This document shows positions 5,618 to 15,693 of a DNA stretch of 18,962 nucleotides, one piece after another. Source of the stretch: a virus. The notes under the pieces are model-generated. The model saw only the letters and a program-made list of their open reading frames with translations. It was not told where the DNA came from and ran no database searches. A program made the position numbers and the translations under genes. The first letter of the stretch is position 1; each line of letters opens with the position of its first letter. The stretch is from the UHGV virus genome UHGV-0190812. One strand, given 5' to 3'.

Positions 5618-6475
5618 TCAGCCTACTGTTCTAAAGATGAGAAGTGGTGTCATCCCATACGAATCACTTCCTCTACCAGCTTGTACCTTGACCATATCCA
5701 GGAAGGATTGTAATCCTGACTTGAGATCGTGTTCAGGGAAATCAGGGTTATTGATATTCTGATCTTGTACAGAATCTGGCAAGGCATCAATCAATCCAAT
5801 GACATGCCAGGTACCCGGTATGGTGCCACCATATTTTAAGGCTAAGTCATCAGGATTAATTGTTAAATATTCTTTATCAATAGACATCCACATCAGGTTG
5901 CCATTCTCATCAATAAAATCAACCTGGAGGATGTTGGGAACGATATTAATGAGTTTCTTAACTACACCAATGGTAAGCCCTGGAGATATCTCAATTTCAT
6001 CTGGGGTGAGTTTTCCTTTAAGCTTCGCTTTGGCTTTTGGGGGAAGGTTGACCGTGTTTAATTGTGCTTGGGCTATCTCACCAAAAATAGGCATAATTTT
6101 CTGAATAGTTGACACATCAAAAATGCGCATTTTTCCAACAGAATGAACAACTGAACCAAGATTCTCACCATTAAGTCCAGTTTTAATCATTCCTGCTTCA
6201 TCTAATTTATCGAGAAAATTAATTGGTAATGACCATGAAGCGTCGAAAGTTTTCTCTTGCGAATGTGTTAAGGTGTCGTCAGTCCCCACTTTTCCTTTAA
6301 GAATCTTGACGCTCAATTCAACGGATTTATTAGATTTATCTGTGTCAGAAGTAGTTTGTTTTACGCTCGTCACTACACCAGCATTGTGAAGCTGGGCTGT
6401 GAGGGAGCTAACGCGTACACGGTCTATGTAAAGAAAATCAAATAGTGAATCTGTGCTTTGTTGTTCGAGCTCCAT
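5618..6475 (-). CDS. hypothetical protein, 285 aa (304 aa if started at 6532); repressor-linked cargo, function unknown
   Basis: Long minus-strand ORF between the cI-like gene and pL. ATG at 6475 with AGAGAGGA about 8 nt upstream; alternative ATG at 6532. Appears AT-rich by eye relative to flanking modules. No motif I can assign (no kinase, nuclease, ATPase or TM signatures noted). Confidence 0.6.
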   Translation of the reverse strand: MELEQQSTDSLFDFLYIDRVRVSSLTAQLHNAGVVTSVKQTTSDTDKSNKSVELSVKILKGKVGTDDTLTHSQEKTFDASWSLPINFLDKLDEAGMIKTGLNGENLGSVVHSVGKMRIFDVSTIQKIMPIFGEIAQAQLNTVNLPPKAKAKLKGKLTPDEIEISPGLTIGVVKKLINIVPNILQVDFIDENGNLMWMSIDKEYLTINPDDLALKYGGTIPGTWHVIGLIDALPDSVQDQNINNPDFPEHDLKSGLQSFLDMVKVQAGRGSDSYGMTPLLIFRTVG

Positions 6476-6617
6476 TTTGCCAATCCTCTCTAAATTTTTC
6501 TTTTTCCTCGCGAATTCTTTTTTGCTTTTCATCTATCTCATCGAAAAGTTGAATGAGTTCATCCACACCATGTGAAGGCGTCTCTGATTTCACTTTCTTC
6601 AAAATTTTCTTGAACAT
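6438..6617 (-). CDS. small charged hypothetical protein (59 aa), possible partner of the downstream 285-aa protein
   Basis: First ATG of the 6438-6695 ORF (MFKKILKKVKSETPSHGVDELIQLFDEIDEKQKRIREEKEKFREDWQNGARTTKHRFTI). Overlaps the 5' end of the next gene in another frame. No convincing Shine-Dalgarno. Confidence 0.3.
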   Translation of the reverse strand: MFKKILKKVKSETPSHGVDELIQLFDEIDEKQKRIREEKEKFREDWQNGARTTKHRFTI

Positions 6618-6766: not shown

Positions 6767-7459
6767 TTACCCATGCTTCCTGTATGTCTGCGGCATGCTC
6801 CCAATAACCTTACCGAAGATGAACACCCGGTTCATCTCGTCTTTCTCGATCGGGTCCCACGGTGAGTAGCTCTTGTTATCAGAGATAACCAGCAGCTTAT
6901 CCTTCATCATTTGCAGGCGCTTTACATGGGCTGTGTCGTCGTACAGAAACGCATAGATACCATCACCGTCGAAAGATTTAACCGTGATATCAACGAACAG
7001 CAGATCACCTGGTTCGATCGTTCCTGACATGCTGTCACCACGCACGTTAATGATGCGGATATTTTCCGCCTTCCTGCCATCGAACATGTGACGAGCATCG
7101 TCAAACGAGTACTCAACCGAGCGTAGAACTTCTACAAACTCACGGTTGATTACACCCGGCCCGGCACTGACTTCTATATCAAGAACGTCAATCTTGAAGT
7201 ATTTTGAATGGCTGACAGCAGGCTTCCCTGATTGTTGACCGTCATTTCTCATCGGGCCTATGCCTGATGAGAGCCATTCTGTTCGAACACCCAATGCATT
7301 AGCTATTTCAACAATTTTTGTTGAGCCGCGCGCGTTGCCGCTTGTCAGTCTCCAGATTGTGGGTTGAGCTACGCCAGACGCCTTTGCAAGAGCGCCTTGA
7401 GACATTCCAGATTGTTCCATCGCTAGGTTTAAGCGATCAGCAAGAGTTTCTTTTTTCAT
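6767..7459 (-). CDS. cI: CI-like prophage repressor (HTH N-domain plus S24 LexA-like autopeptidase C-domain)
   Basis: HTH segment (MSQGALAKASGVAQPTIWRLTSG); Ala-Gly cleavage site (EVSAGPG), Ser in GDSMSG and Lys in HVKRL consistent with RecA-stimulated self-cleavage. ATG at 7459 sits right after a pRM-like promoter, giving a near-leaderless mRNA as in lambda; the track start at 7495 is a TTG inside the promoter. Confidence 0.85.
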   Translation of the reverse strand: MKKETLADRLNLAMEQSGMSQGALAKASGVAQPTIWRLTSGNARGSTKIVEIANALGVRTEWLSSGIGPMRNDGQQSGKPAVSHSKYFKIDVLDIEVSAGPGVINREFVEVLRSVEYSFDDARHMFDGRKAENIRIINVRGDSMSGTIEPGDLLFVDITVKSFDGDGIYAFLYDDTAHVKRLQMMKDKLLVISDNKSYSPWDPIEKDEMNRVFIFGKVIGSMPQTYRKHG

Positions 7460-7461
7460 AA

Positions 7462-7560
7462 GTTTTAATTTATACGCTTGCGTATTGATGGTCAAAACAC
7501 GTTTTGCTATTGCTTGAATTAATACGCATTGCTATTATTCATTCATTGCAATACCAATAG
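7462..7560. promoter_or_regulatory. OR region: divergent pRM-like and pR-like promoters with operator repeats
   Basis: pR (+): TTGCTT 7510-7515, 17-nt spacer, TATTAT 7533-7538. pRM (-): TTGACC (rc of 7490-7495), 16-nt spacer, ATAAAT (rc of 7468-7473). TTGCTATT motif at 7504-7511 and 7529-7536 overlaps pR -35/-10; a third palindromic site CATTGCAATA near 7544-7553. Confidence 0.5.
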
Positions 7561-7563
7561 GAA

Positions 7564-7797
7564 TTGATAATGACAAATCAAACCATTCAACTCGCAATCA
7601 GTATTACAGGTAGTCAAAAACGACTGGCAGATCTATGCGGTGTAGCCCAACCCACAGTTTGGCGTTGGCTACACGGTGGCGGAATTGATGCCCGCTATGT
7701 AATGAAAATTGTCTCAGCCACTGGTGGAAAGATTAAACCAGCAGATATTCGTCCCGACCTCGCACCATTGTTTAACGCGAGTAATTCTGCCGCCTAA
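7564..7797 (+). CDS. cro: Cro-like repressor (YdaS/Cro HTH family)
   Basis: 77-aa ORF immediately downstream of pR; HTH segment SQKRLADLCGVAQPTVWRWLHGG; AGGA Shine-Dalgarno. Confidence 0.75.
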   Translation: MIMTNQTIQLAISITGSQKRLADLCGVAQPTVWRWLHGGGIDARYVMKIVSATGGKIKPADIRPDLAPLFNASNSAA

Positions 7798-7821
7798 ACT
7801 GCGGCGTTAACTGATAAGGCA

Positions 7822-8367
7822 ATGACTATGCAACCACTTACATACCAACAGACTAGCGGATTTAGCCCGACTGCGGTGATAAATCGTTCTCAAACAAAAC
7901 AGGCGCCAGGCCACGAAAAAATCCGTGATGCCGTTCGCGCCTGGTCGGCTGCAGATAATCAGGATGTTGTTGCCGCACTCATTGTGAATGAGTATCGGGA
8001 GCAGGGCGGCGGCACCATCGATTTCCCTGATGATGTCAGCCGTGCACGCCAGAAGCTGTTCCGCTTCCTCGATAACAAATTCGATTCTGAAAAATACCGA
8101 AATAACGTGCGTGAACTGACCCCGGCAATTCTGGCGGTACTACCGCTGGAATATCGCGGCCACCTGGTTGAGCAGGATAGCTACATGGCTCGGCTGGCTG
8201 AAATGGAAAAGGAACTCAGTGAGGCAAAACAGGCTGTCATTCTCAACGCACCACGCCACCAGAAACTGAAGGAGATGAGTGAAGGCATTGTGTCGATGTT
8301 TCGTGTGGACCCGGATTTGGCTGGTCCACTGATGGCGATGGTCACCACCATGCTGGGGGCAATATGA
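7822..8367 (+). CDS. YdaT-family protein in the cII position (putative lysis-lysogeny regulator)
   Basis: 181-aa ORF between cro and O. EYREQGGG and PAILAVLPLEYRGHL segments resemble Rac YdaT as recalled from memory. Stop overlaps the next ORF (ATGA). Confidence 0.6.
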   Translation: MTMQPLTYQQTSGFSPTAVINRSQTKQAPGHEKIRDAVRAWSAADNQDVVAALIVNEYREQGGGTIDFPDDVSRARQKLFRFLDNKFDSEKYRNNVRELTPAILAVLPLEYRGHLVEQDSYMARLAEMEKELSEAKQAVILNAPRHQKLKEMSEGIVSMFRVDPDLAGPLMAMVTTMLGAI

Positions 8368-8453
8368 CAGGTTCGGAAATGGCGAAAGCCGGTCTGCGCG
8401 AACAGAACCGACTTTCAGGTGCAAATCGTAACACACTCATTGCGGGAGGAATT

Positions 8454-9383
8454 ATGGCAAACACTGCTGAGATATTCAATTTTCCAGTGCCGGATGTGGC
8501 ACAAAAGGAGCGGCGCGTGGCAGATCTCGACGATGGTTATACGCGCATTGCAAATGAGTTGCTGGAAGCTGTGATGCTGGCCGGATTAACACAGCACCAG
8601 CTTCTGGTCTTCCTGGCTGTCATGCGCAAAACATATGGCTTTAATAAAAGACTGGATTGGGTGAGCAACGAGCAACTTTCCGAATTGACCGGGATATTGC
8701 CGCACAAGTGTTCTGCTGCAAAAAGCGTTCTGGTAAAGCGTGGGATTCTTATTCAGAGCGGGCGGAATATCGGCATTAATAATGTGGTCAGTGAATGGTC
8801 AACATTACCCGAATCAGGTAAGAAAAATAAAGTTTACCTGAAAGAGGTAAATTTACCTGAATCAGGTAAGAAAAGTTTACCCAAATCAGGTAAAGGCGTT
8901 TACCCGAATCAGGTAAACACAAAAGACAAACTAACAAAAGACAATATAAAACCTTTTTCGTCCGAGAATTCTGGCGAATCCTCTGACCAACCAGAAAACG
9001 ATCTTCCTGTGGTGAAACCGGATGCTGCAATTCAGAGCGGCAGCAAGTGGGGGACAGCAGAAGACCTGACCGCCGCAGAGTGGATGTTTGACATGGTGAA
9101 GACCATCGCGCCATCAGCCAGAAAACCGAATTTTGCAGGGTGGGCTAACGATATCCGCCTGATGCGTGAACGTGACGGACGTAACCACCGCGACATGTGC
9201 GTGCTGTTCCGCTGGGCATGCCAGGACAACTTCTGGTCCGGTAACGTGCTAAGTCCGGCCAAACTCCGCGACAAGTGGACCCAGCTCGAAATCAACCGAA
9301 ACAAGCAACAGGCTGGCGTGACAGCCGGCAAACCAAAACTCGACCTGACGAACACTGACTGGATTTACGGGGTGGAGCTATGA
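8454..9383 (+). CDS. O: replication initiator O (lambda O family) containing the origin iterons
   Basis: From the ATG at 8454 (GGGAGGA Shine-Dalgarno) the N-terminus MANTAEIFNFP...RVADLDDGYTRIANELLEA...LLVFLAVMRKTYGFNK parallels lambda O (MTNTAKILNF...NVADLDDGYARL...VLLAILRKTYGWNK). An in-frame upstream start at 8364 is also possible. Confidence 0.85.
   Translation: MANTAEIFNFPVPDVAQKERRVADLDDGYTRIANELLEAVMLAGLTQHQLLVFLAVMRKTYGFNKRLDWVSNEQLSELTGILPHKCSAAKSVLVKRGILIQSGRNIGINNVVSEWSTLPESGKKNKVYLKEVNLPESGKKSLPKSGKGVYPNQVNTKDKLTKDNIKPFSSENSGESSDQPENDLPVVKPDAAIQSGSKWGTAEDLTAAEWMFDMVKTIAPSARKPNFAGWANDIRLMRERDGRNHRDMCVLFRWACQDNFWSGNVLSPAKLRDKWTQLEINRNKQQAGVTAGKPKLDLTNTDWIYGVEL
8805..8917. repeat. 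ori iterons: four to five ~18-bp internally palindromic repeats TTACC(C/T)GAATCAGGTAA(G/A) followed by an A/T-rich stretch
   Basis: Copies at about 8805, 8853, 8877 and 8900 (23-24 bp or multiples apart), plus a degenerate copy at about 8834. The A/T-rich run 8917-8955 lies immediately downstream. Same architecture as the lambda origin inside O. Confidence 0.7.
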
Positions 9384-10081
9384 AAAACATCGCCGCACAG
9401 ATGGTTAACTTTGACTGTGAGCAGATGCGCCGGATCGCCAACAACATGCCGGAACAGTACGACGAAAAGCCACAGGTACAGCAGGTAGCGCAGATCATCA
9501 ACGGTGTGTTCAGCCAGTTACTGGCAACTTTCCCGGCGAGCCTGGCTAACCGTGACCAGAATGAACTGAACGAAATCCGCCGCCAGTGGGTTCTGGCTTT
9601 CCGGGAAAACGGGATCACCACAATGGAACAGGTTAACGCTGGAATGCGCGTAGCCCGTCGGCAGAATCGACCATTCCTGCCATCACCCGGGCAGTTTGTC
9701 GCCTGGTGCCGGGAAGAAGCATCTGTTAACGCCGGGCTGCCAAACGTCAGCGAGCTGGTTGATATGGTTTACGAGTATTGCCGGAAGCGTGGCCTGTATC
9801 CGGATGCAGAGTCTTATCCGTGGAAATCGAACGCGCATTACTGGTTGGTTACCAACTTGTACCAGAACATGCGGGCCAATGCGCTGACTGACGCGGAATT
9901 ACGGCGCAAGGCTGCCGATGAACTGACCTGTATGACAGCGCGAATTAACCGTGGTGAGACGATACCTGAACCAGTAAAACAACTTCCTGTTATGGGCGGT
10001 AGACCTCTAAATCGTGCACAGGCTCTGGCGAAGATCGCAGAAATCAAAGCTAAGTTTGGGCTGAAAGGAGCAAGTGTATGA
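9380..10081 (+). CDS. P: replication protein P (DnaB helicase loader)
   Basis: 233-aa translation is near-identical to lambda P as recalled (MKNIAAQMVNFD.EQMRRIANNMPEQYDEKPQVQQVAQIINGVFSQLLATFPASLANRDQNE...). Confidence 0.95.
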   Translation: MKNIAAQMVNFDCEQMRRIANNMPEQYDEKPQVQQVAQIINGVFSQLLATFPASLANRDQNELNEIRRQWVLAFRENGITTMEQVNAGMRVARRQNRPFLPSPGQFVAWCREEASVNAGLPNVSELVDMVYEYCRKRGLYPDAESYPWKSNAHYWLVTNLYQNMRANALTDAELRRKAADELTCMTARINRGETIPEPVKQLPVMGGRPLNRAQALAKIAEIKAKFGLKGASV

Positions 10082-10262
10082 CGGGCAAAGAAAGATTCTT
10101 CGTTACTTGAAGAAATACAGTGTTTATTGTTCTTTTGAGATGTTGCGAAAACAGGAATTACCACGGTAAACATTTTGTAGCTGACCCATGCATTGATGAA
10201 ATATTGTGGGTATTTAATAGAGCATAATTATCAAGTTGCGTAAGATGTGGAGTAATGGTATG

Positions 10263-10288
10263 GGCGGTGTTAGCACCGCCTTTAATTA
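10263..10288. terminator. hairpin between P and the 115-aa gene (possible weak terminator)
   Basis: GGCGGTG-TTAG-CACCGCC perfect 7-bp stem followed on the plus strand by TTTAATT; weak U-tract. Confidence 0.3.
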
Positions 10289-10633
10289 AAGCTCAGAAAG
10301 CTGTAATAATATTTTTTCTGGAGTGGTTTCGTTGGAAATGCTAAATAATACAGCACCTTTGACTGATTCATCTCTCATTTCAATTTCACATGAATTATGG
10401 TTGTATGAGATTGCATAATTTTTTAATGTTCTTTCGCTTTGCCACCACACCATATTTGCAAGACTTCCGTTATACGTTCTTATCTCGATTGATCCGGGCA
10501 GGGCTTTCCAGATAACACCTCCTAGCAATGTAAGAGCGGCTGCACCAACATTTTTTGCATGATGGTTAGAACGTTCCATTACCCCTTCAGCATAACGATG
10601 AAGAATCTCTATGTCAGTCGCTTTGATAGTCAT
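10286..10633 (-). CDS. hypothetical protein, 115 aa; reverse-oriented AT-rich moron in the ren slot
   Basis: ORF opposite in orientation to the flanking replication and nin genes, with visibly lower GC and an AT-rich upstream region (10634-10860) containing an extended -10-like TGCTATATT on the minus strand. No family recognised. Confidence 0.55.
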   Translation of the reverse strand: MTIKATDIEILHRYAEGVMERSNHHAKNVGAAALTLLGGVIWKALPGSIEIRTYNGSLANMVWWQSERTLKNYAISYNHNSCEIEMRDESVKGAVLFSISNETTPEKILLQLSEL

Positions 10634-10862
10634 GTTATTTCCATGTAATTGCTGTGTGAAACGTAGTGTTAGTTAGGTGTTAGCAGAATATAGCATCAAA
10701 GTCGAAACCGGTAGAAAAAATATTGGTGATTATTTCGCTGCATTTGGAACTGGAACAACAATGATTATTAGCATGATTGCTTTTTCCAGTCATAAGAATG
10801 AGTCGTGTTAATTTTTTCTATTCAATAGGAAATTATCATGTCATCAGAATATGAACAACTAT

Positions 10863-10960
10863 GGTGACTTCTGCGCTAAACGGGGACGTTTATGCGCACA
10901 TACAATCCAAACTCTCTTCTCCCTCCACAGATGCAGAAATACACCTGCGATTTTTTGCAT
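10863..10960. repeat. ~98-bp direct repeat, copy A (tR2-like terminator module upstream of the cassette)
   Basis: About 95% identical by eye to 13348-13446 (GGTGACTTCTGCGCTAAACGGGGACGTTTATGCGCACA...CACCTGCG-T(7)-GCAT); contains a short GC stem plus T-run. Confidence 0.8.
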
Positions 10961-11111
10961 TCGGTGTTTTTGGCAGCCAAGAACAGGGAGTCTCTGTTTG
11001 TCTGGCGGCTAAAGGTGATATGGAAATCGTGATGTCTTAGCCTAAAGTAGTTGCAACAGTTGGAGCGATTATGGTGGTAGTAGTGATCATCGCGCCCCCC
11101 ATATGCAAGGG

Positions 11112-11224
11112 TTGACGACATTATTTATCCGGCGCTATATTCTGTGCGTTGCCGCAAAATCGGCACACGGGATTGGCGTCCCGGAATACTACTCAACGCA
11201 TACCGCGTTAAGCGGTTTTTTTAT
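11112..11224 (+). promoter_or_regulatory. promoter plus ~75-nt structured leader ending in an intrinsic terminator (attenuator or small RNA) upstream of the Bro-N gene
   Basis: TTGACG (11112-11117), 18-nt spacer, TATATT (11136-11141). Downstream stem-loops TGCCG/CGGCA and CGGGA/TCCCG, then ACCGC-GTTAA-GCGGT followed by T(7) at about 11202-11222. Confidence 0.35.
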
Positions 11225-11378
11225 GCGCTAAGCACGGCTACGCCCAAATTATGGTGGGCTGTGTGAGGGCTTCTTCGGGAGCGCCGGGTTTGAGTAGCCG
11301 GTTACGCCAACCTTGCACAGTTCACCACCAGTCGATTGGCGTCGTTGGTGGTGATGGTTAACCTGATGAGGTGATACT

Positions 11379-11939
11379 ATGACTACTCAATTAGCATTCC
11401 ACAAAACGACGTTTACCCCAATTTGCCACAATAACAGAATTTGGCTTACTGCCACTGAAGTTGGTTTAGCTCTGGAATATGCGGACGATAAAGCAGTTCA
11501 GCGCATTTACTCTCGTCACTCAGATGAATTTACAGATATGATGACAAGGGTGGTCAAAGTGACCACCCCTCGTGGAATGCAGGAGTCTCGAGTATTTAGC
11601 CTTCGCGGAGCCCATTTGATCGCCATGTTTGCACGAACTCCTGTAGCCAAAGAGTTCCGCCGCTGGGTTCTGGATATTCTCGATCGAGAAGTTCAACAAT
11701 CCCCAATCATAAAACAATTCACTGATAACGAACTTTGCACACTTGCTTGGTTATGGCGAGCAGGGGATGTGATGTTAACCGCCTGCCAGAATGTTACTCC
11801 ACTTCTTCAGGTTGCGGAGCACCGCGAAGCTGGTCGCTTTACTTCTATCGGGCAAGAATATCCCCAGATACTACATAAGGCGCGCGAAATCCTTGCCAGA
11901 GAAACGGCACCATGTAAAACTCCAGCCTTGGCAGGATAA
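11379..11939 (+). CDS. Bro-N domain protein (putative antirepressor-like)
   Basis: 186-aa ORF. N-terminal FHKTTFTPICHNNRIWLTATEVGLALEY...IYSRHSDEF...VFSLRGAHLIAMFARTPVAKEFRRWVLDIL fits the Bro-N fold motif pattern of phage antirepressors. GAGGTGA Shine-Dalgarno. Confidence 0.7.
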   Translation: MTTQLAFHKTTFTPICHNNRIWLTATEVGLALEYADDKAVQRIYSRHSDEFTDMMTRVVKVTTPRGMQESRVFSLRGAHLIAMFARTPVAKEFRRWVLDILDREVQQSPIIKQFTDNELCTLAWLWRAGDVMLTACQNVTPLLQVAEHREAGRFTSIGQEYPQILHKAREILARETAPCKTPALAG

Positions 11940-12150
11940 TAAGTGGAGCAGGGTGTTGCCACATTTGCGTCAGGATAGATTGCAATAGTTTTACATATTA
12001 GGCGCTGAATGGATGCAATCAGATAGCGCACTGGGCGGCAATGATTAAGGCTTCAGATAAGCCAAGTAAGCACTGAAAAAGTTCAATGTAATCAAATTCT
12101 CTTTATGGTATTTTCGTTAGACATCTCATACGCTTAGATGGAAATTTGAA

Positions 12151-12351
12151 ATGATGTATTCAGTAACTTTCGATGAAACTGGACGAGTAGAAGATATTGA
12201 ACTAGAGCGTGAGGTTAGAGCCGGAGATAGACTCTCGCTTAATATTGATGGTCTTGATGGTATTTATATAGTCATGACTGTTAGCGGCCCTATCTATGAA
12301 AATGTTTGTGTGCCAATGAATATCCGGGTTCAAAAGTATTGGAAGCAATGA
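12151..12351 (+). CDS. hypothetical small protein (66 aa)
   Basis: ORF within the repeat-flanked cassette, followed directly by a hairpin terminator. Weak Shine-Dalgarno; no family recognised. Confidence 0.3.
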   Translation: MMYSVTFDETGRVEDIELEREVRAGDRLSLNIDGLDGIYIVMTVSGPIYENVCVPMNIRVQKYWKQ

Positions 12352-12356
12352 TGTAT

Positions 12357-12385
12357 AATCCCCTCAGATGATCGAGGGGATTTTT
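12357..12385 (+). terminator. intrinsic terminator hairpin whose 3' arm contains the Shine-Dalgarno of the next ORF
   Basis: ATCCCCTC-AGATGAT-GAGGGGAT stem (8 bp) followed by TTTTT, then the ATG at 12386; the GAGGGGA in the 3' arm is the only Shine-Dalgarno for that ORF. Confidence 0.45.
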
Positions 12386-12559
12386 ATGTCAGATTGGAAC
12401 ATTGCAGCAAAACCGCAAGAGGAACGTGACAATGTTAACTTTGACCTTGCTGCGTCTGGTGTTGCATATAAAGAACGCTCCAAAATTCTCGTCATAGCCG
12501 AAGTGGTGATGTGCCAGCAACCAGAGCATCTTTGTGATTACTTCATGGAGCGCGTCTGA
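12386..12559 (+). CDS. hypothetical small protein (57 aa)
   Basis: ATG at 12386 with GAGGGGA 5 nt upstream; the track ORF starts 18 nt earlier at 12368. No family recognised. Confidence 0.35.
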   Translation: MSDWNIAAKPQEERDNVNFDLAASGVAYKERSKILVIAEVVMCQQPEHLCDYFMERV

Positions 12560-12631
12560 CTTCTCCATTGAGCATAGCATCACCCAGCCTAAAACATCTG
12601 ACCCTAGATATATGAAACAGGAGGAAGATAA

Positions 12632-13264
12632 ATGAAATTCTCTCGAATTGAACAAAGCCCAACAACGGATGAGGGTAATTACGTGAAAATCGATCATGAC
12701 TTTGGCTATTTTCTAGATCCTAATAAAATGGCCTCGATAGCTAACTATGAGGATGAGTCTGCCGCGCTATTAAAATTGATGCTAATTCATGAGGACTTTC
12801 TTCGGGTTGTTATTGAAAACTTACGACCTGATGGCTCTGAAAAATACAATTCGATAAGAAGCTATAAGTATTTTGCGTCAAAGCTGTCTGCCGCAGTTCT
12901 GTTAGGGCTTCCTGTCTCGCTTGCAGACGCTATGGCTGAGCTCAACACAATACGTAACAAGTACGCTCATAAAATTGAATATGTAATTACAAATGAAGAG
13001 GTTGATAAACTCGCAGAATCGATTAAAAACATAAAGTTAGAAGAGATTAACCATGGTGGCTACGTGCATCAAGTTGTTGAGCCAATTCTCAAGGATGGAA
13101 TCTACGCTATAGCGTTGATGAAAGAGCTACCTCCTGATCTTGAAGAAAATCGCATTCGTATTTGTAAGTTAGTCACTAGCGCGCATTGTATGTGTTTGCT
13201 CGGGGCCTTCTGGTTAATTAACACTCTGCACGTAAAGGGTAAGCTCAAGCTTTCCAAGGCCTGA
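12632..13264 (+). CDS. hypothetical protein (210 aa) with HEPN-like Rx4H motif; candidate abortive-infection or toxin RNase
   Basis: Strong AGGAGG Shine-Dalgarno. Markedly AT-rich by eye. Contains ELNTIRNKYAHK (R-x4-H in an RN..AH context, as in HEPN families such as Abi_2 or DUF4145). The assignment is inference from this one motif. Confidence 0.6.
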   Translation: MKFSRIEQSPTTDEGNYVKIDHDFGYFLDPNKMASIANYEDESAALLKLMLIHEDFLRVVIENLRPDGSEKYNSIRSYKYFASKLSAAVLLGLPVSLADAMAELNTIRNKYAHKIEYVITNEEVDKLAESIKNIKLEEINHGGYVHQVVEPILKDGIYAIALMKELPPDLEENRIRICKLVTSAHCMCLLGAFWLINTLHVKGKLKLSKA

Positions 13265-13347
13265 GTAGATCAATCGTATCATTTTCGCAAAATTGATTCT
13301 CCGTAATCAATTCGCCATAATTGTATCACCGGAGCCTGAACAACTTC

Positions 13348-13446
13348 GGTGACTTCTGCGCTAAACGGGGACGTTTATGCGCACACACAATCCAAACTCT
13401 CTTCTCCCTTCACAGATGCAGAAATGCACCTGCGTTTTTTTGCATC
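13348..13446. repeat. ~98-bp direct repeat, copy B (tR2-like module immediately upstream of ninB)
   Basis: Near-identical to 10863-10960 with about five mismatches. Confidence 0.8.
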
Positions 13447-13474
13447 CAGCGTCTGACCTCTACGGAGGTGAAGC

Positions 13475-13930
13475 GTGAACCTCCCACAAGACGGCATCAA
13501 ATTGCATCGCGGTAACTTCACCGCTATCGGTCGGCAGATCCAGCCTTATCTGGAGGACGGCAAATGCTTTCGCATGGTGCTTAAACCGTGGCGAGAGAGA
13601 CGCAGTCTTTCCCAGAATGCACTCAGCCACATGTGGTACAGCGAAATCAGTGAATACCTCATCAGTAGGGGTAAAACGTTCGCTACTGCAGCATGGGTAA
13701 AAGATGCTCTCAAACACACATACCTCGGTTATGAAACCAAAGAACTGGTTGATGTCGTAACTGGTGAAATCACTACTATCCAGTCGTTACGTCATACTTC
13801 CGATCTTGATACCGGAGAGATGTATGTCTTCCTGTGCAAGATTGAAGCCTGGGCGATGAATATTGGCTGTCACCTGACTATTCCGCAGAGCTGCGAGTTC
13901 CAGCTGCTGCGCGACAAGCAGGAGGCGTAA
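13475..13930 (+). CDS. ninB: NinB-family recombination protein
   Basis: 151-aa ORF (GTG start in the track, GGAGG upstream). [17 protein letters not shown] resembles the lambda NinB segment RSLDQNRKLWACLGDVS as recalled; position after the tR2-like element. Confidence 0.7.
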
Positions 13931-15564: not shown

Positions 15565-15693
15565 AACGCTTATATTTCATGTAAATCTGATATCGTCGCC
15601 ATAGCTTTGTTGGTCGACAAAGAATTAACAGCCTCGCCATCGTGCGGGGCTTTTACTTTACATGCTGTGAACACAAAAAAAGTAACTTTTATG

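Follow-up and report, generated by a model that had tools for sequence, protein, structure and literature searches.

We analyzed an 18,962-nucleotide (nt) stretch of the virus genome UHGV-0190812, called the window below, which is the early region of a phage-82-like lambdoid prophage. Between its replication genes and its nin region lies a 2.4-kb block that is enclosed by two direct repeats and carries, from left to right, a linker, a promoter-like site, the small RNA (sRNA) isrK, a C4-type antisense RNA, a gene for a predicted antirepressor, the small phage open reading frame (ORF) orf66, and genes for a theta-like protein and for a predicted relative of the HEPN nuclease HepS. The contents that a first-pass annotation had listed for the block (a structured leader, a Bro-N gene, two small ORFs and an AT-rich HEPN-like gene) are all there, the last of these having a GC content of 40% versus 47% for the window. 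We consider it likely that this is a mosaic accessory block, situated in the hot-spot between the replication genes and the nin region and bracketed by two copies of a single regulatory leader.

The core of the repeat, 10863-10960 against 13348-13445, aligns pairwise over 98 nt without a gap and with four mismatches (left/right copy: T/C at 10901, C/T at 10925, A/G at 10941 and A/T at 10950), the longest perfect run being the 38 nt of 10863-10900. The near-identical direct repeats of the first-pass annotation are thus real and its right copy was correctly located, with two amendments: the end of that copy, given as 13446, is 13445, and the mismatches, put at about five, are four. A blastn search within the window extends the high-identity repeat to 109 nt (10852-10960 versus 13337-13445; 94.5% identity; E = 1.9e-45), a value that disposes of the early reservation that the two copies might not be significantly similar. 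Weaker similarity, 83% over 160 nt, reaches back to 10808/13293 and takes in a promoter-like -35/-10 pair, of which the elements are conserved and the sequence is not. The homology ends immediately 3′ of a T-run, where GCAT is followed by TCGG in the left copy and by CCAG in the right one. As the repeat lies far beyond chance expectation and the same arrangement recurs in many finished genomes, it is neither a chance similarity nor an assembly artefact.

By sequence identity, the repeated unit is the orf33/ylcH leader of phage 82, a module of about 150 nt that is normally found in one copy immediately ahead of the first nin gene. Over 118 nt, the right copy shares 98% identity with phage 82 (GenBank X92588), from the region upstream of orf33 into orf33 itself, where the depositors marked a putative -35/-10 pair, a ribosome-binding site, a 33-codon ORF overlapping orf151 and an inverted repeat, the last labeled a 'possible regulator-binding site'. 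The same putative -35/-10 pair, inverted repeat, ribosome-binding site and overlapping ORF link the window to phage 82 and to ylcH-ybcN of the E. coli prophage DLP12; the phage 82 record has one copy and no block, whereas the window has a second, truncated copy 2.5 kb upstream. We know of no functional test of the region upstream of orf33 in phage 82. The literature on ylcH/ybcN regulation yielded nothing about the leader, PMC12315714 and PMC9836094 make no mention of the region, and a search of Rfam with both copies gave no match at E <= 1.

To define the module, we surveyed 120 further IMG/VR loci retrieved with a 24-nt module pattern, together with annotated phages and E. coli prophages, and aligned 101 non-redundant variants, which display a constant architecture on a variable sequence background. 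At the 5′ end is a promoter-like site (TTGAT(T), a 17-nt spacer, nATAAT), the -35 element of which is overlain in 64 of the 101 variants by the palindrome TTGAT-N8-ATCAA, with a variable spacer between the arms (13293-13312 and 10808-10827 in the window). This palindrome may be an operator for a regulator that is probably encoded by the host; some variants have TGATAATCATTTTTCA in its place, which by eye resembles a Fur box. Hairpin 1 retains its loop, CCUGAACAA, while its stem differs completely among lineages. Hairpin 2 has a GGGGA(C) loop and an ATG or GTG in its 3′ arm, such that the Shine-Dalgarno sequence lies in the loop and the start codon in the stem, and its stems are as different as TAAACG/CGTTTA, ATTTAA/TTAAAT and TTTGAG/CTCAAA. 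The module further contains a C-rich, G-poor stretch (39% C, 10% G), and its last ~35 nt, which form an A/U-tract hairpin (hairpin 3), are nearly invariant, in part through ascertainment, because this sequence is the search pattern of the survey.

The first two hairpins are supported by covariation. A covariance model was built on an ungapped seed and 109 copies were realigned to it, whereupon changes on both sides of the pair were seen in 7 of the 8 pairs of helix 1 and in 10 of the 11 pairs of helix 2. An alignment fitted to a model favors its structure; with the partners slid as a control, at most 51% of the cells are paired, versus 94.8% in register. RNAalifold on a MAFFT alignment recovered hairpin 1 and mis-registered hairpin 2, and the covariance-model realignment was used instead. 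The leader ORF (29-34 codons) is kept in 94 of the 101 variants, with a stop codon that overlaps the next start (ATGA in 68, GTGA in 26); the gene coupled to it is of the ybcN/orf151 type in 85 loci, a true NinB (PF05772) in 37 and Q in one. The module is accordingly conserved and presumably transcribed, as the leader of the first nin gene. It ends at the point where the ybcN-, ninB- and Q-type contexts diverge from one another and, because alternative downstream gene sets begin there, it would serve as a shared homology 'linker'; by the same token, the left junction of the block is simply another 'downstream allele'. This leader is widespread and structured, has a coupled mini-ORF, lies outside Rfam and is placed at the entrance of the operon ending in Q; no other part of the system is understood so poorly.

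The right copy (13293-13446, plus strand) is intact, as seen from its 98% identity to X92588, the promoter scan, RNAfold and covariation. It comprises TTGATT (13293-13298), CATAAT (13316-13321), hairpin 1 (13327-13351), hairpin 2 with a GGGA loop and an AUG in the stem (13357-13383) and hairpin 3 (13415-13446), and folds at -38.6 kcal/mol (z -4.4). Its 33-codon leader ORF, orf33/ylcH (13377-13478, plus strand; orf33 in X92588), overlaps with its stop the GTG of the next gene (GTGA). The left copy (10808-10961, plus strand) aligns in register with the right one, and the covariance model gives it 125 bits. Its promoter-like site (TTAATT, 10808-10813; AATTAT, 10831-10836) is degenerate and its hairpin 1 (10842-10866) weakened; hairpin 2 (10872-10898) is intact and is followed by the A/U-tract hairpin 3 (10930-10961), directly after which the copy is cut and joined to the 139-nt linker (10961-11099, plus strand), a sequence that is found only in two-module loci, at 81-100% identity. 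Its leader ORF has become a 46-codon ORF (10892-11032, plus strand), in which the first ~23 codons of the leader ORF are fused to an unrelated tail, without a Pfam match and without coupling to anything downstream. A similar tail occurs in other left copies, and in E. coli relatives PGAP calls the left copy as a small ORF lacking the C-terminus.

Both copies could have been selected as working regulatory units, with the left one controlling or insulating the antirepressor unit. This idea, which is compatible with a mosaic block, we hold as a tentative possibility. It draws support from diverged left copies that keep hairpins 1-3 and the promoter-like elements, from the left copy of one locus (L004), in which a G-C pair of hairpin 1 has become C-G by compensatory change, and from a scan that found no other terminator-like site between the hepS stop (13264) and ybcN, nor between the upstream genes and the isrK promoter. 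It is weakened by the window itself, where hairpin 1 of the left copy is degenerate, the fold (-26.1 kcal/mol, z -1.6) is no better than that of shuffled sequence and the leader ORF has lost its coupling, and by a locus that has the antirepressor unit and no left copy (L106, see below).

The genes and RNAs between the repeats all belong to described families, and their functions are predicted here from homology. Downstream of the linker is a promoter-like site (11112-11141, plus strand; TTGACG, 18-nt spacer, TATATT), recognized by consensus only (10 of 12 matches), followed by the sRNA isrK (11150-11222, plus strand; Rfam RF01394, 60.7 bits against a gathering score of 50), which ends in a terminator made of a stem at 11202-11216 and a T-run, according to the terminator scan. 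Overlapping isrK is a sub-threshold match to the c4-a1b1 target family RF03163 (11135-11187; 40.6 bits, gathering score 46.7). A C4-type antisense RNA follows (11247-11332, plus strand; RF01695, 72.7 bits, gathering score 45, full length). The 'structured leader' of the first-pass annotation thus corresponds to a predicted isrK plus C4-type RNA; a tRNA or tmRNA was also looked for in it and none was found. The antirepressor gene (11379-11939, plus strand; 186 amino acids, aa) combines a Bro-N domain (PF02498, 40.6 bits, cut-off 25.6) with a P22AR_C domain (PF10548, 57 bits, cut-off 22.4) and also matches the PHROG anti-repressor Ant families, whereby its product is predicted to be a phage antirepressor. 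In the close relatives L007 and L136 the protein is 202 aa long and differs at the C-terminus, which may reflect a frameshift or an alternative end.

Within the C4-type RNA, two segments each have a target in isrK and another at the start of ant: 11290-11297 (TTGAGTAG) is complementary to CTACTCAA at 11189-11196 and at 11383-11390 (ant codons 2-4), and 11304-11310 (ACGCCAA) to TTGGCGT at 11173-11179 and 11336-11342. We predict that the C4-type RNA pairs with the start of the antirepressor gene and keeps ant silent. With the same two target sequences, IsrK could in turn either titrate this RNA or open the mRNA. A close precedent is the isrK-orf45(STnc1160)-anrP unit of Gifsy-1, in which IsrK acts in trans to turn on translation of the antirepressor and promotes induction, and for which expression from the isrK promoter was demonstrated (PMC4825925). 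Both loci have the order isrK, C4-type RNA, Bro-N-type antirepressor gene, with Rfam and Pfam matches in each. In Gifsy-1, unlike the window, the unit is lodged between Q and isrJ, with no orf33 module and no direct repeats flanking it; a clear equivalent of orf45 (STnc1160) was not found in the window block. A second likeness is to immI of P1/P7 (c4-icd-ant) and to the CI RNA of P4 with seqA/seqC, RNAs of the same Rfam clan (CL00128) as that of the window. In these, and by prediction here, the antisense RNA is processed from a transcript carrying its own targets, and two short complementarities are each present both upstream and downstream of the RNA. The window differs in that the genome is that of a lambdoid phage and in that the upstream copy of the targets would be set free as a terminated sRNA (IsrK) as well; an icd-like gene was not recognized in the block.

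The remaining cargo begins with orf66 (12151-12351, plus strand; phrog_38858, E = 6e-50), a small phage ORF also present in loci L007, L008 and L037, 3′ of which the scan placed a terminator-like hairpin of 9 pairs with a T-run (12357-12382, plus strand). Next is a gene for a 57-aa protein of the theta (HolE)/P1 Hot type (12386-12559, plus strand; PF06440, 71 bits, cut-off 34.6); the mechanical ORF call begins earlier, at 12368, and an identical relative has a gene call of 57 aa at this position. The last gene (12632-13264, plus strand), the 'HEPN-like gene' of the first-pass annotation, encodes a 210-aa protein that we predict to be a homolog of HepS. With phmmer, its residues 1-208 match residues 3-203 of chain A of the HepS structure (PDB 9oij; 9oij_A) at E = 6.9e-62, and a profile of its homologs reaches E = 4.7e-105 against 9oij; over the full length it is ~50% identical to HepS, with a similar value for Salmonella homologs. 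The motif R108-N-K-Y-A-H113 (residues 108-113), of the Rx4-6H catalytic type, aligns with the RNKYAH of HepS, which holds the catalytic R100-H105 (PMC13043305), and R108 and H113 are invariant in 11 homologs. Weak HEPN-family Pfam matches surround the motif, and PADLOC gives a marginal match to a Csm6 HEPN (E = 0.011), marginal because its 2023 library predates HepS. An AlphaFold2 (AF2) model had a mean predicted local distance difference test score (pLDDT) of 55 and was left out of the fold search, the identity having come from the PDB sequence search. HepS is the HEPN abortive-infection nuclease of Gifsy-1; siphovirus tail-tip proteins activate it, and it cleaves the anticodon loops of tRNAs (PMC13043305). 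The Gifsy-1 gene and the homolog in the window both lie in an accessory region beside replication and antirepressor genes; unlike in Gifsy-1, the latter stands after the antirepressor gene and before the leader module.

Comparison with other prophages showed that the module is present once in 27 of 29 phage records (twice in the other two) and once in nearly all of the 120 IMG/VR loci, which agrees with the earlier supposition that it normally occurs a single time before the gene at the ninB position. Ten two-copy loci are of the isrK type, namely the window, PhiR26_1, IdasGreatGrand, four E. coli prophages (including that of the O26 strain 11368) and three IMG/VR contigs, and all have the order left module, linker, isrK, C4. 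Upstream of the left copy they have the VCH_CASS14-family gene, ren plus a hypothetical gene, PD-lambda-1 or small ORFs. The cargo between ant and the right copy likewise varies: the orf66-theta-HepS set occurs in the window and in L007, a HEPN protein with a partner in L009, L013 and L104, and other genes in L001, L004, L008 and L037, orf66 with a 225-aa protein being among the sets. The search for different cargo between the same repeats, which had been proposed along with the original prediction, was therefore productive in other prophages. Sampled O26 and enterotoxigenic E. coli (ETEC) relatives also have the isrK/C4/ant unit with other downstream cargo.

Two further loci extend this picture. 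In L093 (IMGVR_UViG_2609459941_000002, 6818-11107), a 4.1-kb block between two leader copies that are 83% identical holds genes for a tail-fiber-like protein, an S-pyocin/cloacin-type toxin and a cloacin immunity protein, and the second module copy is coupled to the Q gene. In the IMG/VR locus L117 (1-629 and 2464-3092), the repeat around isrK-C4-ant is at least 629 nt long and 98.6% identical, with a right end as in the window; it runs off the start of the stored locus. So long a repeat at such identity bespeaks a recent event or gene conversion.

An unoccupied site was found as well. A synthetic query joining 10300-10851 to 13337-13800 gave one contiguous match (100% cover, 96.9% identity) in each of two E. 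coli genomes, NZ_CP114130 and NZ_CP173115, which hold the exact empty site that the first-pass annotation had suggested seeking. The module of this empty allele has a left-type 5′ end and a 3′ end identical to that of the right copy of O26 strain 11368. Among 5,426 complete E. coli genomes, the left junction with the linker (query 10930-11120) is present in 301, 174 of them at 99% or more (O157:H7, O26, O103 and O111 among them) and 118 at 60-80%, and queries made of the module and the start of ybcN find ~2,900 E. coli genomes.

The direct repeats around the block, and the adjacent gene, whose Pfam family (VCH_CASS14) takes its name from an integron cassette protein, might bring to mind a discrete mobile element, be it a transposon, an integron-type cassette or an integrase-borne island, with the repeats as target duplication or att sites. 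We rejected this reading, including its attC version, as extremely improbable: 10100-13500 contains no gene for a transposase, integrase or other recombinase; the repeats (109-160 nt, and at least 629 nt in L117) are too long, too variable and too dissimilar to each other for a target duplication; there is no attC-like architecture; and the repeat is a resident leader that is single in most surveyed prophages carrying it.

Instead, the 2.4-kb block appears to be an ordinary product of phage mosaic recombination, homology-bordered mosaic blocks being a known feature of lambdoid phages. We posit that the linker-isrK-C4-antirepressor unit is one downstream set attached to the leader and that this unit, with its trailing cargo, would have given a block flanked by direct repeats upon meeting a resident leader-ybcN junction. 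Homologous recombination in the leader, by RecA or by the phage RecT/YqaJ with Orf and RusA, could then add, remove or swap the block, as the comparisons suggest; the window itself encodes RecT, YqaJ, an Orf-family protein and RusA. Mosaics of this kind arise on diverged homology through Rad52-like recombinases, with orf and rap as helpers (PMC3945230). Once in place, the HepS-like nuclease would protect the lysogen from other siphoviruses, and the leader copies would serve as weak or regulated stops, keeping block transcription out of ant (left copy) and out of nin/Q (right copy), the last being the least certain step. Of the proposal in the first-pass annotation that a cassette was inserted by recombination at a conserved intergenic module, recombination is supported and the conserved module holds up, and the identity of that module needs correcting, with homology to tR2 excluded and a terminator function no more than plausible; its further suggestion that the repeats allow precise loss or exchange gains support from the empty site and the alternative cargo.

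Several observations weigh against this mosaic-exchange reading, some touching the exchange and others the postulated stops. No recombination event was itself observed in these comparisons. Empty alleles with the left flank of the window were seen in only two genomes, versus 178 that have the left junction at 95% identity or more, and the right flank of the empty allele is only 93% identical to its occupied relative, meaning that it is a mosaic relative and that no polarity, ancestral or by deletion, can be assigned. In most loci the left and right copies are 5-20% diverged, which implies that exchange between them is too infrequent to homogenize them. In O26 strain 11368, identity is 90% over the isrK region and 74% for Ant, with breakpoints inside the block. 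Finally, in the IMG/VR prophage locus L106 (8739-9916) isrK-C4-ant directly follows ren, with neither left module nor linker, and the antirepressor unit thus also exists outside the repeat-bracketed form; the worry that relatives everywhere might carry the same genes without flanking repeats applies to this one locus, set against ten isrK-type loci that have the repeats.

The divergence of the copies, the breakpoints within the block and the fact that the empty allele is not near-isogenic to the occupied one are also what would be expected if the repeats were a passive scar of one old rearrangement, with the variation arising through other homologies and the copies having no present role in gain, loss or regulation. 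The same left junction (the module followed by TCGGTG) is shared by all isrK-type loci, which points to a single origin. We nonetheless regard a mere scar as rather unlikely. At least four different upstream contexts adjoin that junction, which puts crossovers within or close to the left copy; the empty site falls exactly on the module and has a chimeric module, part left and part right; L117 has its long, nearly identical repeat and L093 an independent block between module copies; and left copies keep their fold, with covariance-model scores of 80-126 bits at an identity of 80-95%.

The stop function ascribed to the leader in the mosaic-exchange reading faces difficulties of its own. The first-pass annotation saw in each copy a short GC stem with a T-run of the tR2 type. 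A stem and T-run are present, and the terminator scan flags both copies, with only 3 G-C pairs. Hairpin 3 is GC-poor and mostly without a clean U-run; the T-run is interrupted in most variants, reading GAUUUUCUGCAU; in the RNAfold prediction an A-run further upstream pairs with the U-run (-13.5 and -9.2 kcal/mol); and helix 3 has no compensatory change among the 109 realigned copies. Terminator activity is plausible from the position of the module, and we regard it as putative. Promoter matches in the region, scored by consensus only, number 8, against 8.0 expected by chance. We also rejected homology to lambda tR2, as the module has only 10-nt chance matches to lambda 39500-41500 and no similarity to the ren-ninB gap that holds tR2. 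The two share a map position, in the interval between the replication genes and the Orf/NinB gene ahead of the nin region; the lambda gap has a strong GC-rich stem with a T-run and, unlike the module, neither promoter-like site, leader ORF nor 5′ hairpins. That the leader copies act as weak or regulated stops is probable, and the least certain step of the reading.

A bolder possibility, which we consider doubtful, is that the module is a portable control-and-docking element, combining an RNA attenuator that gates entry into nin/Q with a DNA crossover point for the exchange of blocks. Translation of the 31-33-codon ORF would then decide whether hairpin 3, or Rho acting on the C-rich tract, stops the polymerase, and the invariant 3′ part of the module would be the preferred crossover for defense, antirepressor and bacteriocin blocks via the phage RecT/Orf. 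If true, the module would be a homologous-recombination analog of an integron attachment site.

Accessory blocks of lambdoid phages that have their own promoter and terminator are known as morons. The block in the window resembles morons and other homology-flanked mosaic segments in its candidate promoter-like and terminator-like sites, in its presence or absence among relatives and in the homology at its borders; it differs in that both borders are copies of the same structured leader, giving rise to direct repeats within one genome. It is a well-delimited example of the trade in accessory genes among lambda-like prophages, here the genes for a predicted abortive-infection nuclease of the HepS type and for an antirepressor under predicted RNA control, akin to the one that sets off induction in Gifsy-1, and offers a clean picture of a HepS-type defense gene and an antirepressor switch traveling together. 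Given that the left junction is found in ~300 of 5,426 E. coli genomes, including many O157:H7, O26, O103 and O111 strains, gain or loss of the block could alter phage resistance and induction in Shiga-toxin-producing lineages.

Around the block, the minus strand of the window carries genes for a Dam methylase, a YqaJ-type exonuclease, RecT, a DUF6414 protein and a CI-like repressor, and the plus strand YdaS/YdaT-type genes followed by O and P. The DUF6414 gene (304 aa; 5618-6532, minus strand) separates the recombination genes from the gene for the CI-like repressor, a position that is another accessory-gene slot of lambdoid phages. The YdaS- and YdaT-family genes (7564-8367) occupy the cro and cII positions, a layout shared with many 82/DLP12-like prophages, and are called 'toxins' by Pfam and PGAP. 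There is no ren in the window; at the ren position of relatives, on the opposite strand and between P and the left repeat, is the VCH_CASS14-family gene (10286-10633, minus strand; assigned by Pfam; phrog_5959), the Pfam name of which comes from a Vibrio integron cassette protein. On the right flank, outside the cassette, orf151/ybcN (13475-13930, plus strand) is an Orf-family gene at the ninB position, YbcN having been assigned to the Orf family (PMC4118853). The order 3′ of the right repeat is orf33, orf151/ybcN, ninE, orf96/ybcO, rusA, orf45/ylcG and a Q82-type Q, a gene set that matches X92588 at ~95%.

A last observation concerns the sequence beyond Q, where, 16 nt 3′ of the Q82-type gene, a match to Rfam isrJ (15580-15653) is preceded by TTGCAA-N17-TATATT. 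Gifsy-1 (L135, 33406-33480, minus strand) has the same promoter and isrJ, with its isrK-C4-anrP unit between Q and isrJ. Because Gifsy-1 shares the promoter and isrJ, yet has the unit at that place, 'IsrJ' resembles a short leader RNA made from an 82-type late promoter, and the isrK-ant unit appears to use different slots in different prophages.

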